A stretch of DNA of 24,026 nucleotides from a virus (IMGVR_UViG_3300022173_000071:1-24026); one strand, 5' to 3'; counted from the first letter of the stretch, positions 5,531 to 15,911 are shown. Notes: generated by a model not told the origin, from the sequence alone. Translations and numbers: made by a program.

Positions 5531-5555
5531 TCGAGTGGTGACGAAGTAGGTTCCT

Positions 5556-5620: not shown

Positions 5621-5800
5621 ATGAAGAAAATCGTGTTCGCTCTTCTCCTCGTGCCGAGCGTCGTGCTCGCACACCCAGGCCATGATGGTCACGCTGATGC
5701 GAGCCGCGAAGCTCTCATCACCAACCCGGCGCTCATCATCGCGCTATTCATCGGCATCTCGCTCGCGTTCTCTCGCGTCGCTCGGATGGTGCGCAAGTGA
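5621..5800 (+). CDS. 59-aa membrane protein: signal peptide, HPGHDGH, C-terminal TM helix
   Basis: GGAGG RBS; MKKIVFALLLVPSVVLA-HPGHDGH...PALIIALFIGISLAFSRVARMVRK; GTGA overlap with the ATPase gene; below the ORF-track cutoff. Confidence 0.75.
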   Translation: MKKIVFALLLVPSVVLAHPGHDGHADASREALITNPALIIALFIGISLAFSRVARMVRK

Positions 5801-7341
5801 GCAACAACGCCGCCGACGTCAACGCCAAGATCACGTCGTGGTTCCGTGCTCGCAACACCCTCATGCTCGTGCGCACGGATGACGAGCTGCGCGTCGAGCG
5901 TGCCCTCGTGCAGGCAGCAGCTGCTGCCAAGTTCGAGATGCGGTTCTGGGATTGTGACCGCGGCATCACCGGTGCTGATGACACGCGCATCTCGCAGAAC
6001 GGTGACCCGAGCGCATGCTTGGAGTTCATCCGTACCCGCAAGGACCGTGCGGTGTACGTGCTCCGTGACATGCACAAGTGGATCGGCGATCCCACGCTGC
6101 CACGCAAGCTGCGCAACCTGTCGCGTGAGCTGCAGGTCGCGCCGCCGAACGAAGCGCGCTCGATTCTCCTGCTCGCACCGATGGCAATGGAGATCCCGCG
6201 CGACATCCCCGAGCTGAAGTCGGTGGACTACCCGCTTCCTGATCGCGCTGAGGTCTCGCGCATCCTGGACGATGTGATCATGGCGCTGCCCGAGTCGATG
6301 CGTGACGCGGCTGCTCCGAACGGTACGCGTGAGCGTGCGGTGGATGCTGCGCTCGGGCTGTCTGCGCTGAACATCAGCAACAGCTATAGCGTGTCGCTCG
6401 TGACGAACCGCAAGGTCGACCCGGCGCTCGTGACCAGCGAGAAGAAGACGCTGATCGCTGGCATGCCGGGCATCACGTGGCACGAGCCTGACCCGCGTGG
6501 TCTCGACGCCATCGGCGGATACGATGAGCTGAAGCAGTGGTGTGTGCAGCGCAAGGCAGCGTTCACGCAGGAGGCGCGCGAGTTCGGCCTGCCTGCTCCG
6601 AAGGGCGCGATGCTCGTCGGTCTGCCTGGCACTGGCAAGTCGCTCGCTGCGAAGTGCATCGCCACGGTGTTCGGAGTTCCGCTGCTCCGTGGTGACCTCG
6701 GCGGTGCGAAGTCCAAGTACGTCGGTGACTCCGAGCAGAACATCCGCCGGCTCATCGCGCTCGCTGAGACGATGGCGCCATGTGTGCTCTGGTTCGATGA
6801 GATCGAGAAGGCGCTCGCGGGCGCCAGCGGTCAGCAGGGTGACGGCGGTGTCTCCACCGATGCGCTCGGCGTCATCCTCTCCTGGATGCAGGAGAAGACG
6901 GCTCCGGTGTTCGTCATCGCCACGGCGAACGATGTGCGCCAGCTGCCGCCCGAGCTGCTCCGCAAGGGACGCTTCGACGAGATGTTCTTCGTCGACCTGC
7001 CGCAGCATGGTGAGCGCAAGGAGATCATGGCGGCGTCGCTCAAGGCGTTCAATCGCCCGAGCGATGGCATCGACATGAACACCATCGCATCCGCCACGGA
7101 TGGCTTCGTTGGTGCCGAGATCGCGGCGCTCGTGCCGGATGCTCTGTACGCAGCGTTCGCGGATGGCAAGCGTCCGATCACCACCGAGGATCTCGTGTTC
7201 GCTGCGACGCGGGTGGTGCCGCTGTCGAAGACGGCGAGCGAGAAGATCTCAACGCTCCGCGAGTGGGCGAAGGGTCGTGCTCGGCCGGCGAGCGCGGTCG
7301 AGAAGCCCGCCGAGGGTGCTGTTCGTTCGCTGGATCTGTAA
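5797..7341 (+). CDS. AAA+ ATPase, Ycf46-like (degenerate N-terminal AAA domain plus active C-terminal AAA domain)
   Basis: Walker A GLPGTGKS, pore loop SKYVGDSE, Walker B VLWFDEIEK, sensor FVIATAN, SRH LPPELLRKGRFDE; N-terminal LRDMHKW segment. Confidence 0.9.
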   Translation: MSNNAADVNAKITSWFRARNTLMLVRTDDELRVERALVQAAAAAKFEMRFWDCDRGITGADDTRISQNGDPSACLEFIRTRKDRAVYVLRDMHKWIGDPTLPRKLRNLSRELQVAPPNEARSILLLAPMAMEIPRDIPELKSVDYPLPDRAEVSRILDDVIMALPESMRDAAAPNGTRERAVDAALGLSALNISNSYSVSLVTNRKVDPALVTSEKKTLIAGMPGITWHEPDPRGLDAIGGYDELKQWCVQRKAAFTQEAREFGLPAPKGAMLVGLPGTGKSLAAKCIATVFGVPLLRGDLGGAKSKYVGDSEQNIRRLIALAETMAPCVLWFDEIEKALAGASGQQGDGGVSTDALGVILSWMQEKTAPVFVIATANDVRQLPPELLRKGRFDEMFFVDLPQHGERKEIMAASLKAFNRPSDGIDMNTIASATDGFVGAEIAALVPDALYAAFADGKRPITTEDLVFAATRVVPLSKTASEKISTLREWAKGRARPASAVEKPAEGAVRSLDL

Positions 7342-7345
7342 TCGA

Positions 7346-7398
7346 AGCGCTGAGACCGGCTAACGACCGGGCACCCACGTGCGAGACGTGGCAAGCGC
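7346..7398 (+). ncRNA. structured three-way-junction repeat element, copy 4
   Basis: AGCGCTGAGACCGGCTAACGACCGGGCACCCACGTGCGAGACGTGGCAAGCGC, 4 nt after the ATPase stop. Confidence 0.7.
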
Positions 7399-7407
7399 GC
7401 CATTGCT

Positions 7408-7438
7408 GTTGACACTGTCACCGACTAACGAATAGTTT
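7408..7438 (+). promoter_or_regulatory. sigma70-type promoter with palindromic operator (P2)
   Basis: GTTGACACTGTCACC 7408-7422; TTGACA 7409-7414, 18-nt spacer, TAGTTT 7433-7438. Confidence 0.7.
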
Positions 7439-7481
7439 CCCTGTCAGACCCTGAACCGATACTTGAACCAAGGAGAGAAAC

Positions 7482-8303
7482 ATGTCCAACGCATCTGTCA
7501 TTCGTCCCGGCCTGCTCGTTTCGCTGAAGTCCACCCTCCAGGGTGGTGTCGTCTACGAGCGCGTCGACATCAACACCGGCGAGAAGCTGCCCGATGGTGC
7601 CGAGGTCAGCGAGTGGAAGACCAAGCGCACGATCGAGGATCCGGTCGAGCACACCGCAGCGACCAAGGCTCGTGGCGCGGCACGCTCGCTCATCGTCAAG
7701 TGCTGCTCCACCACGTCGTTCGGTCTGCTCTGCCCGGAGGAGCAGGAGGGCGCGCTCGATGCAGCGGTCAAGGCTGCGCGCCAGGTCGTCGACAACTTCA
7801 ACGACAGCGCGAAGCACACGCGCATCGGCATCTTCGTCATCAAGGGTAAGGTCGCGAGCACCGATGCAGAAGCGGCGCGCGCCATCACCCAGGAGATCGC
7901 CGAGCTGACCATCGCGATGGACGCTGGCATCAAGGCGTTCGATCCCGACGCGATTCGCAAGGCGGCGAGCCGCGCGCGCGAGCTGTCGAGCATGCTCAGC
8001 GAAGAGAAGCAGGGCAAGATCAACGGCGCGATCGAGCAGGCTCGCAAGGCGGCGCGCACCATCGTCAAGCGCATCGAGACCGAGGGCGAGGATCGCTCGG
8101 TCGTGATGATGGACATCCAGCGCGGTCAGATCGAGAGCGCGCGCATCGCGTTCCTCGACATGTCCGGCGACTCGGATGTTGTCGGTGGTGAGCTGCCCTC
8201 CGTGCAGCAGCAGCGCTTCGCGGATCTCGACGTGAGCGACGTCGAGACGACCGCTCCGTCCAAGAACCGCCAGATGCGCCAGATGGAAATGGAGGTCGAG
8301 TAA
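7482..8303 (+). CDS. helical hypothetical protein (273 aa), probable partner of the AAA+ ATPase
   Basis: AAGGAG RBS; long Ala-rich helical ORF directly after the ATPase; loose DUF3150-like impression only. Confidence 0.85.
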   Translation: MSNASVIRPGLLVSLKSTLQGGVVYERVDINTGEKLPDGAEVSEWKTKRTIEDPVEHTAATKARGAARSLIVKCCSTTSFGLLCPEEQEGALDAAVKAARQVVDNFNDSAKHTRIGIFVIKGKVASTDAEAARAITQEIAELTIAMDAGIKAFDPDAIRKAASRARELSSMLSEEKQGKINGAIEQARKAARTIVKRIETEGEDRSVVMMDIQRGQIESARIAFLDMSGDSDVVGGELPSVQQQRFADLDVSDVETTAPSKNRQMRQMEMEVE

Positions 8304-8304
8304 C

Positions 8305-8640
8305 ATGCCCTGCGACACCCAGCTCGCGAGCGGTCAGACGCTCGAAGATCGCAACAACCAGGTCAAGGCAGCCTTGCGCAAGCTCGAAGCCGCGCTCAAG
8401 GGCGGCACGGTGCGGGTCAACATCGGTCCGAACGGCGCTGTCGCGTTCCAGGGCTGGAAGGACCGCGGCGACGTCAGCGACGTCTGCGCGTACCGTACGC
8501 TCACCGCTGAGGGCTCCTGGGAGCTTCGCCAGGCGGTTGTGAAGGCGGAGGCGATGACCGGACGCAAGGTCAACGCGAACGCCGTGGCGAGCGGCGAGCA
8601 CAGCCACGACGGCGGCGACACCTGGCACAAGGGTCACTGA
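8305..8640 (+). CDS. hypothetical protein (111 aa) with His-rich C-terminus HSHDGGDTWHKGH
   Basis: GGAGG RBS; 1-nt gap from the previous stop. Confidence 0.85.
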   Translation: MPCDTQLASGQTLEDRNNQVKAALRKLEAALKGGTVRVNIGPNGAVAFQGWKDRGDVSDVCAYRTLTAEGSWELRQAVVKAEAMTGRKVNANAVASGEHSHDGGDTWHKGH

Positions 8641-10126: not shown

Positions 10127-10426
10127 ATGCCGATCCATCTCGTCATCACCACACCGCAAGAAGTGTTCGCGAGCGCGCTCGGCTCGGCGAGAGAGTTGAG
10201 TGAACGCATCATGAAGCTCGCCGACCTGAAGGCATCGCCGCTCATGCCGGGTGAGACAGCGGACGGGCGCCGACACCAGATCGCCAAGTTCGGCAAGGCG
10301 CTCGCGGAAGCGTTCCTCGTGATCGACAAGCTCATGGCGCAGGCTGCTGATGAGCTTCAAGCTGCGCACGGGCGCGACGTGACATCGGGTCCGACGAAGC
10401 CGCCCGACGACTCGAACGCGAACTAG
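10127..10426 (+). CDS. hypothetical protein (99 aa)
   Basis: GAGGAGG RBS; abuts the previous stop. Confidence 0.75.
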   Translation: MPIHLVITTPQEVFASALGSARELSERIMKLADLKASPLMPGETADGRRHQIAKFGKALAEAFLVIDKLMAQAADELQAAHGRDVTSGPTKPPDDSNAN

Positions 10427-10802: not shown

Positions 10803-10837
10803 TTACTGTTGACATCGTCAACAGTAAGCCTTATGCT
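10803..10837 (+). promoter_or_regulatory. sigma70-type promoter inside an extended palindrome (P3)
   Basis: TTACTGTTGAC-ATC-GTCAACAGTAA perfect 11-bp inverted repeat 10803-10827; TTGACA 10809-10814, 17-nt spacer, TATGCT 10832-10837. Confidence 0.85.
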
Positions 10838-11996: not shown

Positions 11997-12202
11997 AGAT
12001 CAACAACGCGATGTCGCTCCTGGAGCTGCATGGTCTCCTGCGCGCAGGGTCGCTCGAAATGAAGATCGACTTCGTCAACAGCGCCGCGTACTGGCGTGTG
12101 TCGCTGCAGCGGCTCGCCGATGCCAAGATGTGGATCGGTGTCGGTCGCAACATCGGCGAAGCACTGAAGGACGCGTACGGCAAGTACGAGCGAGGTGAGT
12201 GA
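11993..12202 (+). CDS. hypothetical protein (69 aa)
   Basis: GTGA overlaps on both sides. Confidence 0.7.
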   Translation: MKINNAMSLLELHGLLRAGSLEMKIDFVNSAAYWRVSLQRLADAKMWIGVGRNIGEALKDAYGKYERGE

Positions 12203-12636
12203 TGCAGTGGAACACCGACGAGGTCATGGTTGGCATCGCGATCGGCGGAACCGCAGGTCTGGCTCTCGGCTACGAGCTGCGCAAGCTCGTCGTCCGCTTC
12301 CAGACGTGGCGAGGCAAGAAGCCTGATCACATCACCAAGCGCGACCTCAAGAAGGCGTACCGTCACGACAAGGTCGTCGCGATCGTCGAGCACGAGAAGC
12401 CGCCGACGATTCCGCTCAAGCGCACCCGGCGCACCACGCCAGTCAACCACACGCAGGAGCAGCCGATCCCTGTGACCAACCCGGACCGCGAGGATGTCAT
12501 CGCGGCGCTCATGGGTTCTGGTTACAAGAAGGACGTCGCGATCAAGGCGGCCGATGCATGCTCGATGGAGGAGCGTGCACGCGGTCTGCAGCAGTGGACC
12601 ATCGCTGCATTCAAGAACGCGCACGGTGCGAAGTGA
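12199..12636 (+). CDS. membrane-anchored protein with RuvA C-terminal (domain III)-like domain
   Basis: N-terminal VMVGIAIGGTAGLALGYEL helix followed by basic residues; K/R/P-rich linker; C-terminal EDVIAALMGSGYKKDVAIKAA...LQQWTIAAFK fits the RuvA_C pattern (EAxxALxxLGYxxxEAxxA...LIRxAL). Confidence 0.75.
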   Translation: MMQWNTDEVMVGIAIGGTAGLALGYELRKLVVRFQTWRGKKPDHITKRDLKKAYRHDKVVAIVEHEKPPTIPLKRTRRTTPVNHTQEQPIPVTNPDREDVIAALMGSGYKKDVAIKAADACSMEERARGLQQWTIAAFKNAHGAK

Positions 12637-12863
12637 AGCGCACGTGGGGTCTCGGTTGCTGGAGCGTTGGCGGCAACGTCTGGAGCCTGTACTCCGCGGG
12701 CGAGATCGTCAGCGAGATCGTCAGGCTCACCGACGGGTTCCGCACATTCTTCCGCGGCAAGCTCGTGCGCGAGAAGCCCTACACCAACATCGGAAACGCG
12801 AGGCTCGCTGCAGAGCGGGCACTCAGGAAGGAACGCCATGACCAGACGACAGATCGAACGTGA
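12633..12863 (+). CDS. hypothetical protein (76 aa, MKRTWGLG...)
   Basis: GTGA overlap upstream; 26-nt overlap with the next gene. Confidence 0.6.
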   Translation: MKRTWGLGCWSVGGNVWSLYSAGEIVSEIVRLTDGFRTFFRGKLVREKPYTNIGNARLAAERALRKERHDQTTDRT

Positions 12864-13014
12864 AGCGAACCGTTCTGATTGCACGTGCGACCAGGTCTGC
12901 AATCGAGGACATCACCACCGCCTCTGCAAAGCGTGGCGAGCGAAGGTCATCACCATCAAGCGTTTCCTGAGCGGGTTCACCTCGCTCAAGCGCTTGGAGA
13001 AAGCTCTGCCATGA
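12838..13014 (+). CDS. small basic Cys/His protein (58 aa; CTCDQVC..GHHH.LC)
   Basis: AGGAAGGA RBS; ATGA overlap with ruvB. Confidence 0.65.
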   Translation: MTRRQIEREANRSDCTCDQVCNRGHHHRLCKAWRAKVITIKRFLSGFTSLKRLEKALP

Positions 13015-14003
13015 AGGACAACGACATCCGACCAGCATCGTTCGACGACTACGTCGGACAGCGCGACACCATCATGACGTTGCGTCGTGCAGTGATCGCA
13101 GCTCTCCACAACGATCGCGCGTGTGGTCACCTCCTGATCGCCGGCCTCCCCGGGTGTGGCAAGACCACGCTCGCGGCGATCGTCGCGACGGAGATGAAGA
13201 CCCGCCTGCACTCCGCGGTGTGCCAGGCGATCGAGCACAAGGGCGAGCTGACTGGGCTGCTCACTGGGCTCGGCAAGAACGATGTGCTGTTTCTCGATGA
13301 GCTGCATGGTCTCAAGCCCGCGATGCAGGAGCTGCTCTACACGGCGATGGAAGACGGACACGTCGACCTCAGCGCAGGCAAGAAGACCATCCGCCTGCCG
13401 CTGCAGCCGTTCACGCTCATCGGAGCCACGACGCGAGCGCATCTGCTCACCGGACCGTTGCGTGACCGCTTCGCGTACACGTTCAACCTCGGGCACTACT
13501 CGGTTCCCGACCTCGCCACCATTGCAGGCCGAACGATGCGCAAGCTCGACGTCCGCACCAATGCATTCGGCGAGAACATCGCTGATGCGATCGGTCGACG
13601 CAGCCGTGGTACACCACGCATCGCGAACCGCCTCGTGCGGGCGTGCCGCGACTTCATGCAGTCGGCCGGCGAGCAGGAGCTGACGCTGGAGACCGCGGAG
13701 GGCACGTTCCATGCTCTCGGTATCGACTCGCTCGGGCTCGATGCGAACGATCGCGCGTACCTCGCGTTGCTCTGTGAGCGCGTCGGCATGCCCTACGGTG
13801 TGACTGCCATCGCAGCTCAGCTCGGGCTGGAGCGTGGTGTCATCGAGGGTGTGATCGAGCCGCACCTGATGGAGACCGGACTCATCCGCCGCACACCGCA
13901 GGGACGCATGGCGATGCCGGCGGCGGTCGCACACCTGCAGTCGCATCAAGAGACGATGCACGACGCCGATCCAATCAACCAGGGCTGGGAGATCACGTCA
14001 TGA
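13011..14003 (+). CDS. ruvB: Holliday junction branch migration ATPase RuvB (330 aa)
   Basis: IRPASFDDYVGQ, Walker A GLPGCGKTT, Walker B LFLDELH, FTLIGATTR, LRDRF, SRGTPRIANRL, C-terminal winged helix IEPHL...RTPQGR. Confidence 0.95.
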   Translation: MKDNDIRPASFDDYVGQRDTIMTLRRAVIAALHNDRACGHLLIAGLPGCGKTTLAAIVATEMKTRLHSAVCQAIEHKGELTGLLTGLGKNDVLFLDELHGLKPAMQELLYTAMEDGHVDLSAGKKTIRLPLQPFTLIGATTRAHLLTGPLRDRFAYTFNLGHYSVPDLATIAGRTMRKLDVRTNAFGENIADAIGRRSRGTPRIANRLVRACRDFMQSAGEQELTLETAEGTFHALGIDSLGLDANDRAYLALLCERVGMPYGVTAIAAQLGLERGVIEGVIEPHLMETGLIRRTPQGRMAMPAAVAHLQSHQETMHDADPINQGWEITS

Positions 14004-14341
14004 AGCTCGATGCAGAGACCCTCCGCAAGCTCGCTCTCGCTGGAGCACGCACTCGGCTCAAGGAGCTGGAGTCCGAATCCGAGAAGCTGCGCGATGTGAT
14101 TCGTCAGCTCACCGGAGCGACGGTCCCACCCGATGGACGCAGGTCCGTGGCGAAAGCCATGAAGTCGAAGGCGCCGATGCGGCATGCGCCTGGTCGAACG
14201 CGGAAGAACCGCAAGTACACCGAGAAGTTCAAAGCTGCTGTCGTCAAGGAAGCCAACGAGGCCAACAACGCGTCGGCAGTCGGCAAGAAGCACAACGTGT
14301 CACCGAGCCTCGTCCGCCTCTGGGTCGACAAGGCGAAGTGA
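14000..14341 (+). CDS. coiled-coil plus C-terminal helix-turn-helix DNA-binding protein (113 aa)
   Basis: N-terminal heptads LKELESESEKLRDVIRQL, basic linker, RKYTEKFKAAVV...ASAVGKKHNVSPSLVRLWV (HTH_Tnp_1-like pattern). Confidence 0.8.
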   Translation: MKLDAETLRKLALAGARTRLKELESESEKLRDVIRQLTGATVPPDGRRSVAKAMKSKAPMRHAPGRTRKNRKYTEKFKAAVVKEANEANNASAVGKKHNVSPSLVRLWVDKAK

Positions 14342-15585: not shown

Positions 15586-15911
15586 TCGAGTGGTTCGTGA
15601 CAGCTCCGAATCCAAGGACCATCGATCAGAGCGCTGATGCAGGGCAGCGTGGTTGGTCTCTGCATGCGGTGGACATCAAGGATGGGAAGACGACTCTCGG
15701 AGAGATCCGACGTGCCACCGCAGCATGTGGACTCACACCCGCACATGGTTGGACTGTTGACCTGTTCATCACGGTCGATAACGGTGCCAAGAATTGCAAG
15801 CGGTGCGAACGCGCGCTCGCGAAGCATGGCAAGCATCCTCACCCATTCGAGGGACTCACCGACAAGGAGGGTCACTACATCCCGCTAGCAGACAGGAGAA
15901 CCAAGAGATGA
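15582..15911 (+). CDS. putative zinc-binding protein (109 aa; LHAV...ACG...CKRC)
   Basis: GTGA and ATGA overlaps; H-C-CxxC ligand set. Confidence 0.75.
   Translation: MIEWFVTAPNPRTIDQSADAGQRGWSLHAVDIKDGKTTLGEIRRATAACGLTPAHGWTVDLFITVDNGAKNCKRCERALAKHGKHPHPFEGLTDKEGHYIPLADRRTKR

Follow-up and report, generated by a model that had tools for sequence, protein, structure and literature searches.

We describe a phage gene pair in which a homolog of RuvA domain III, without domain I or II and preceded instead by a predicted membrane helix, travels with a RuvB that belongs to a phage-only clade. The pair is a clade-level accessory module of one phage clade, in which known parts have been rewired into a conserved and apparently undescribed arrangement. 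We see about an even chance that the smaller protein, referred to as the stub in the following, is a membrane-tethered activator and an anchor or stator for the phage's own RuvB, which would hold or move phage DNA at the membrane.

The window and its phage clade

The stretch of DNA analyzed here (the window; IMGVR_UViG_3300022173_000071:1-24026) is a complete virus record of 24,026 nt with a G+C content of ~61%. Its genes form a single run on the plus strand, the end of which lies near a terminase gene (Pfam GpA_ATPase, phrog_675). Since the 89-kb, 76% complete relative G002 encodes a major capsid protein, a tail sheath and a baseplate, we assign the window to a clade of large contractile-tailed phages; contigs of 107–122 kb suggest a genome of ~118 kb for this clade. 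On its opposite strand, G002 carries a replication module with DNA polymerase A, DnaB, primase, SSB, RecA and SbcCD, as well as a helicase (a weak UvsW_N match) and a RusA-like resolvase. Together with G004, it covers the map from the major capsid gene to the terminase on both sides. The sole hint at a host comes from G006 (33,839 nt; P0192, P0040), which is also deposited inside a ‘Polyangia bacterium’ MAG, maybe as an effect of binning. Among sequencing runs, no RNA data set was listed as holding the sequence.

Elsewhere in the window, positions 5797–8640 hold a AAA+ ATPase (514 aa) and two conserved unknown genes (phrog_8638, 11021, 11784); relatives of this ATPase occur in 103 viral stretches, many of which are unrelated phages. 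A protein encoded at 15908–16936 matches phrog_6247, annotated as DNA topoisomerase, has a Zn-ribbon-like insertion and is also present in the sister phage G007. Finally, a 70-nt direct repeat stands at gene ends at 1714, 3125, 4324 and 7346 on the plus strand, with 79–91% identity to its first copy.

Table 1. Coordinates of the gene pair and associated features, counted from the first nucleotide of the window
Feature	Position	Strand	Basis or remark
Promoter-like site TTGACA-17-TATGCT inside the clade motif CTGTTGACANNGTCA	10806–10837	+	Consensus match only; heads the gene run with both genes
Stub gene, 144 aa: predicted membrane anchor, linker and RuvA domain III	12202–12636	+	Alternative start GTG 12199
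Predicted single transmembrane helix, V8–Y24	12223–12273	+	Hydropathy, uncharged run, charge bias
Basic, Pro-containing, flexible linker, residues 25–93	12274–12480	+	Hydropathy/charge analysis, model
RuvA domain III homolog, residues 94–143	12481–12630	+	Profile searches, model
Two short overlapping passenger ORFs (12633–12863, 12838–13014)	12633–13014	+	Shared solely with the closest relative, L004
ruvB, 330 aa, phage-specific clade	13011–14003	+	Walker A/B, sensor 1/2, arginine finger and MED motif intact
Part inside ruvB	13356–13403	+	

A RuvA domain III homolog without the rest of RuvA

An earlier reading of the window from its sequence alone (the sequence-only reading) had placed a gene at 12199–12636, encoding a glycine-rich helix followed by basic residues, a K/R/P-rich linker and a RuvA C-terminal domain. 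Both the gene and this layout are borne out. The open reading frame is present and corresponds to the database protein P0001; because GAGGT lies 5 nt upstream of the ATG at 12202, this ATG overlaps the preceding stop codon, and P0001 is 144 aa long, we consider this ATG the likelier start. The stub has eight close relatives in a family that divides into 207 clusters at 50% identity, and its nearest ESM Atlas clusters, a lead only, are 91–100% viral (top score 0.90). The alignment used for the family comprises 144 of 157 collected family proteins, the 13 omitted ones being fragments or having odd N-termini.

By itself, the stub protein matched nothing in scans of Pfam, PHROG and NCBIfam, in a tblastn search of 50,697 GenBank phage records, or, at E ≤ 0.001, in Foldseek searches of the PDB and BFVD. 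Its relatives, however, lead to RuvA: Pfam RuvA_C (PF07499) is found at E < 0.1 in 12 of 15, and above the curated cut-off in P0009, P0117 and P0056. In the reciprocal direction, a profile of only the 49 C-terminal columns of the family was searched against cellular ruvB loci totalling 1.32 Mb, translated into 16,366 six-frame segments. In 46 of the 80 loci it matched, at E < 0.1, the C-terminus encoded by the gene that immediately precedes ruvB, with a best E-value of 1e-10 and the first unrelated match at 0.38; all seven loci checked among these 46 encode a full RuvA. A structural model built from the 144 sequences (mean pLDDT 86) shows a three-helix, UBA-like fold with pLDDT values of 92–97 over residues 91–140. 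In a comparison with 48,161 chains, the three highest-ranking matches come from RuvA domain III, with Z-scores of 6.3 (2ztc_A, rmsd 2.2, 50 residues aligned), 6.1 (7pbp_G, rmsd 1.7, 48 aligned) and 5.8, followed by UBA domains at 5.3 or less; these values are middling, lie within 1 of the UBA match at 5.3 and are supportive, not proof. Relatives, reciprocal profile and fold thus agree where the window protein alone gives no match, and together they indicate that the C-terminus of the stub is a true homolog of RuvA domain III. The window copy keeps L103, G107, Y108 and F137, has S106 at the position equivalent to L170 of E. coli RuvA, and carries the family-specific residues C120, E124, R125 and W132.

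The remainder of RuvA is missing from the stub, in which Pfam and NCBIfam detect neither RuvA_N nor the HhH domain II and residues 1–93 are accounted for by the helix and the linker. A full, junction-binding RuvA subunit is thereby ruled out, as both the OB fold and HhH are missing. RuvA_N, HHH and RuvC gave no match among the 21 window ORFs scanned either, in agreement with the sequence-only reading, and RuvA_N is absent from six of six related records and RuvC from five of five (records 29–76% complete). Fused forms were not encountered among 8000 candidates of 427–2000 aa, a weak negative that holds for this length range.

The N-terminal helix and the linker

Based on hydropathy and charge bias, the two criteria behind the membrane call, the stub is predicted to span the membrane once, with its N-terminus outside and its C-terminus inside, which would leave domain III in the cytoplasm; the orientation follows from the basic residues that come after the helix. 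In the window copy, a 17-residue uncharged run with glycine at positions 11, 15, 19 and 23 is followed by R27, K28 and further basic residues, and the helix is marginal, with a Kyte-Doolittle (KD) 19-mer value of 1.51 and a hydrophobic moment of 0.26. Across the family, the median KD value is 1.96, and 106 of 144 members reach at least 1.5, compared with nine among 207 other phage proteins, of which one is itself a family member; the uncharged run is at least 17 residues long in 135 of 144. All 136 members with a KD value of at least 1.2 have more K/R after the helix than before it (4.66 versus 0.21). The membrane tether of the sequence-only reading consequently stands as a family-wide prediction, while the window helix itself is borderline. 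In the model, this region appears as one long helix of residues 5–39. The linker that follows varies between 28 and 161 aa in the family and has a median net charge of +6.

A phage-specific RuvB

The intact RuvB that had been noticed downstream is confirmed: RuvB_N, the AAA lid and the winged helix are all found by Pfam, and the protein scores 328.8 with NCBIfam NF000868 (cut-off 282) and 293.6 with TIGR00635, just below the cut-off of 299.05. Its ATG lies 374 nt beyond the stop codon of the stub gene, one less than originally counted (375). While the protein is 41–49% identical to cellular RuvBs, 75 database proteins (P0160–P0234) are 51–100% identical to it, against a cellular background of 46–49%. 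In a quick tree, a long branch with an SH-aLRT of 100 separates 25 sampled members of this clade from the rest, and no donor lineage is readable. A tblastn search of GenBank phages returned 34 records, all below 60% identity (best 46%) and none from the phage clade. Likewise, the best 80 of 368 matches in GTDB contigs were cellular RuvBs only (41–46%), and a stub search of these contigs gave 304 pattern matches, of which none was confirmed, and no prophage or host copy.

The catalytic positions named in a structural account of RuvAB (PMC9477746), i.e. Walker A/B, the sensors, the arginine finger and the trans-acting Glu-Asp, are invariant in 74 of 74 clade members, a count that omits the fragment P0230. 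Two arginines that contact DNA are altered, with equivalences set by motif and by alignments: The contact after Walker B (R101 of T. thermophilus) is Gly or Ala in 74 of 74 members, G100 in the window, and the middle wing arginine is replaced by Q297 in the window, and by Lys in 39 and Gln in 31 of the 74. A basic residue is found at 296 or 297 in 43 of 74. For P. aeruginosa, the R317A exchange, which matches the middle wing arginine, is reported to kill branch migration (PMC10071043, PMC10272136). R142, R275, R294 and R299 are retained in the window RuvB, the latter two in all 74 clade members.

Remodelled docking surfaces

In the RuvAB structures described in PMC9477746, domain III is bound by helix α3 and the presensor-1 hairpin of RuvB. 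Both elements carry changes common to the clade RuvBs, all 75 of which have a hairpin four residues shorter than that of 41 of 44 other database RuvBs and of 74 of 74 measurable cellular RuvBs (80 loci). P0267, P0269 and P0273 are RuvBs outside the phage clade that share the four-residue-shorter hairpin.

The partner surface has changed as well. With E. coli RuvA numbering placed by motif spacing, 45 of 46 cellular RuvAs have Leu at the L170 equivalent and one has Met, whereas Leu stands there in 6 of 144 stub members, in which the position is mostly Ala or Ser, and Ser in the window copy. By comparison, the equivalent of L167, the other hydrophobic residue required for RuvB activity in E. coli, is kept (Leu in 98%), L103, G107, Y/F108 and L/F137 are conserved, and C120 and W132 are new and near-invariant. 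The L170A exchange in E. coli abolishes RuvB activity (PMC2628435, citing Nishino 1998). Loss of this leucine argues against canonical binding to host RuvB and is consistent with co-divergence of the two partners, but it is also compatible with a loss of binding, and our preferred reading has to assume a compensation for the Ser. As both surfaces are remodelled, a cognate pair is favoured over a host decoy. Since two of the six Leu members come from contigs as long as those of short-hairpin RuvBs, the L170 change and the hairpin shortening are not strictly coupled.

A complex predicted for RuvB residues 1–312 and stub residues 90–144 scored 0.59 versus 0.00 for the best of three controls, passing a mark that is reached by 116 of 157 solved pairs and 2 of 215 mismatched ones, at scores of up to 0.60 by 18 of the 157 and both mismatches. 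The runs agree in at least 98% of the contacts, with partner pLDDT values of at least 85, and the pass may reflect memorization by the predictor, because similar RuvA–RuvB complexes have already been solved. The contact between domain III and phage RuvB anticipated by the sequence-only reading is thus hinted at by the prediction, which points weakly to binding.

Linkage and distribution

The stub gene lies 183–1558 nt upstream of ruvB in seven of eight viral records found through RuvB, six of the seven being independent because L007 and L008 are identical at this locus, and the metagenome contig L004 adds a further pair with a gap of 736 nt. Every record found through the stub also carries ruvB; a stub without ruvB was seen in none of them. 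The converse occurs in G003, whose 62 kb contain ruvB but not the stub; a different gene takes the stub's place, and ruvB lies 3.5 kb from the contig end. More distant records, chosen by length and closeness from 100 loci found via the terminase and the neighbouring AAA gene, were searched whole, and 24 of 24 have neither gene; among them are 12 records with a completeness of at least 90% as well as G007 with its 117.9 kb. The pair is therefore accessory, and the co-occurrence expected from the sequence-only reading is found in the linked records and in the joint absence from these 24. In a midpoint-rooted terminase tree, G007 and four further records without the pair stand opposite the ruvB-bearing group (both SH-aLRT 100). 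Within the pair-bearing clade, terminases are 58–80% identical, and both genes are retained while the intervening genes turn over.

Among 31 unplaced stub proteins, six come from contigs exactly as long as those of clade RuvBs (2766, 17384, 2145, 33839, 24691 and 18662), which is circumstantial. A second stub subfamily comprises 63 of the 144 members. Four of its proteins lie on contigs of 11–116 kb whose lengths match no RuvB in the set, and eight more on contigs of only 961–4815 nt, which are uninformative for such matching; two viral scans for loci of this subfamily returned only one, already known record.

No third conserved partner emerged, as conservation among relatives does not extend to the genes that separate stub and ruvB or to those directly behind the pair. 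For instance, the gene at 14000–14341, which overlaps the ruvB stop codon and encodes a C-terminal helix-turn-helix similar to HTH_Tnp_1/IS66 TnpA, is not conserved there. A 99-aa helical protein encoded at 10127–10426 is kept in all seven pair-bearing relatives that reach this region, in several of them close upstream of the stub; it has no NCBIfam match and is also present in G012, which is without ruvB. In L006, a 449-codon open frame on the reverse strand (439–1785) occupies the place where relatives have the stub gene.

A promoter-like motif

The motif CTGTTGACANNGTCA occurs four times in the window, at 5554, 7406, 10806 and 17863 on the plus strand, and in none of 100 shuffles. Its core is found in loci of the phage clade and is missing from all 80 cellular loci. 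Three of the copies resemble sigma-70 −35 boxes, and TGAC-N3-GTCA is palindromic. In L010 and L011, the motif lies 48–49 nt before the stub gene, and in L007/L008 a promoter-like motif lies between stub and ruvB. A sigma-70 scan of the window gave a count of 3, close to the shuffle mean of 2.6, so only the extended motif exceeds chance; we regard it as a candidate clade promoter or operator.

Discussion

According to PMC9477746, domain III of RuvAB brings in RuvB, stimulates nucleotide exchange and hydrolysis, and serves as the anchor through which RuvB motion becomes DNA pulling. Transferred to the phage pair, the helix would span the membrane with domain III inside the cell, and its small-residue face might pack several copies, standing in for the RuvA tetramer. 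Domain III may then dock on helix α3 and the shortened presensor-1 hairpin of phage RuvB, both diverged from the cellular type, where it would load RuvB, act as nucleotide-exchange factor and ATPase activator and provide a fixed point for DNA pulling. With this point in the membrane rather than on a Holliday junction, the motor would act on double-stranded DNA, and phage DNA would be drawn there and held or moved during intracellular replication, by analogy with phi29 p16.7; the basic linker could supply a non-specific DNA contact. Branch migration and resolution would probably fall to the separate replication module with its helicase and resolvase.

The same parts could also be directed against the host: A membrane-bound domain III would capture host RuvB, and phage RuvB may poison host hexamers, so that forks and junctions are left without RuvAB. 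The early-type promoter-like site upstream, the loss of DNA-gripping arginines, which suits a poison subunit, the second subfamily, which may lack an accompanying ruvB, and an ESM Atlas cluster of 104-aa viral proteins with RuvA_C on 95% of its members would all fit. We nevertheless consider such a device unlikely, given that the L170 equivalent is gone in 138 of 144 stub members and that the stub co-occurs tightly with a catalytically intact RuvB whose docking surface is remodelled. The related idea of a decoy for host RuvB, raised by the sequence-only reading, is weakened by the same leucine counts, though the second subfamily is still compatible with it. A brake, by which the anchor keeps the phage's own RuvB at the membrane and off DNA and thereby times or limits its activity, would share the linkage and docking evidence with the activator reading; it would also suit a stub that has no folded DNA-binding domain and a record such as G003, where ruvB comes without a detected stub. 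As domain III is an activator and loader in the RuvAB complexes of PMC9477746 and the linker is consistently basic, as DNA contact would need, we judge a brake to be distinctly improbable.

The remaining alternatives concern the two ends of the stub. The Gly-rich window helix with its modest hydropathy and the single long helix of the model might be taken for a soluble oligomerization element that replaces the RuvA tetramer, making the stub a junction-independent cytoplasmic RuvB loader, or for an export signal; both are very improbable in view of the long uncharged runs and the median hydropathy of the family, and the positive charge that follows the helix in 136 of 136 members is the reverse of a signal peptide. 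We give still less credence to a RuvA-derived domain that now binds something else, its linkage to ruvB merely reflecting the joint capture of a ruvAB operon. The lost L170 equivalent, the newly invariant C120 and W132, the ruvA–ruvB order as in the cellular operon and the weak complex prediction are in line with it, yet both genes are kept across the clade despite the turnover between them, and L103, G107, Y/F108 and L/F137 are conserved. Within the preferred reading of a membrane-tethered activator, lastly, lies a quite unlikely special case, in which the pair is a membrane-anchored RuvB pump that is expressed from whichever part of the genome enters first and reels in what remains of the ~118-kb phage DNA, or catches superinfecting DNA at the membrane. 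The sequence-only reading had thought of a DNA pump for genome uptake; this is disfavoured by the RuvB without two DNA-contacting arginines and by the complete sister phage G007, which is without both genes and thus argues against an obligatory entry pump.

Membrane-fixed hexameric motors for double-stranded DNA are known from FtsK/SpoIIIE, in which a single multi-span chain of the RecA-like class comprises both anchor and motor. In the phage pair, by contrast, a one-span adaptor would hold an AAA+ motor of the presensor-1-insert type without a covalent link. A close known counterpart is bacterial RuvA–RuvB (PDB 7pbl–7pbs, 7x7p/7x7q, 1ixr/1ixs; PMC9477746, PMC10071043, PMC10272136), with which the pair shares a homologous RuvB with intact ATPase motifs, a homologous tethered domain III and the position of the ruvA part before ruvB. 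It differs in that a predicted membrane helix takes the place of the OB fold and HhH, in the basic tether of 28–161 aa compared with 15 aa reported for E. coli (PMC2628435), in the shorter hairpin, the Ala/Ser at the L170 equivalent and the two altered DNA arginines, and in being phage-encoded, with no RuvC in the incomplete related records. A survey of 224 jumbo phages reports that their RuvC is not coupled to RuvB (PMC7824862). The phi29 proteins p16.7 and p1 (PMC11476376, PMC4974454) are, as described there, small early phage membrane proteins proposed to hold viral DNA or the replication machinery at the membrane; no homology is seen, and p16.7 reportedly binds DNA and terminal protein itself, while the stub carries a motor-docking domain. 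UBA domains (PDB 4ae4, 2ekk, 2do6) have the same three-helix fold (Z-scores 4.9–5.4), but the stub sequence profile leads to RuvA C-termini and RuvA structures hold the top three ranks. Searches of the open-access literature turned up neither a membrane-anchored RuvA domain III nor a phage RuvB system.

RuvB is familiar as the motor that works with junction-bound RuvA. If our preferred reading is true, the phage protein would be, as far as we could find, the first RuvB to act outside Holliday-junction processing. The pair would also be a natural test of the lever model put forward in PMC9477746, namely of whether a domain III fixed to any support suffices for DNA pulling, and with 144 and 330 aa it is small and can be reconstituted. 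Should even the entry reading hold, a recombination motor would have been turned into a DNA-entry machine.
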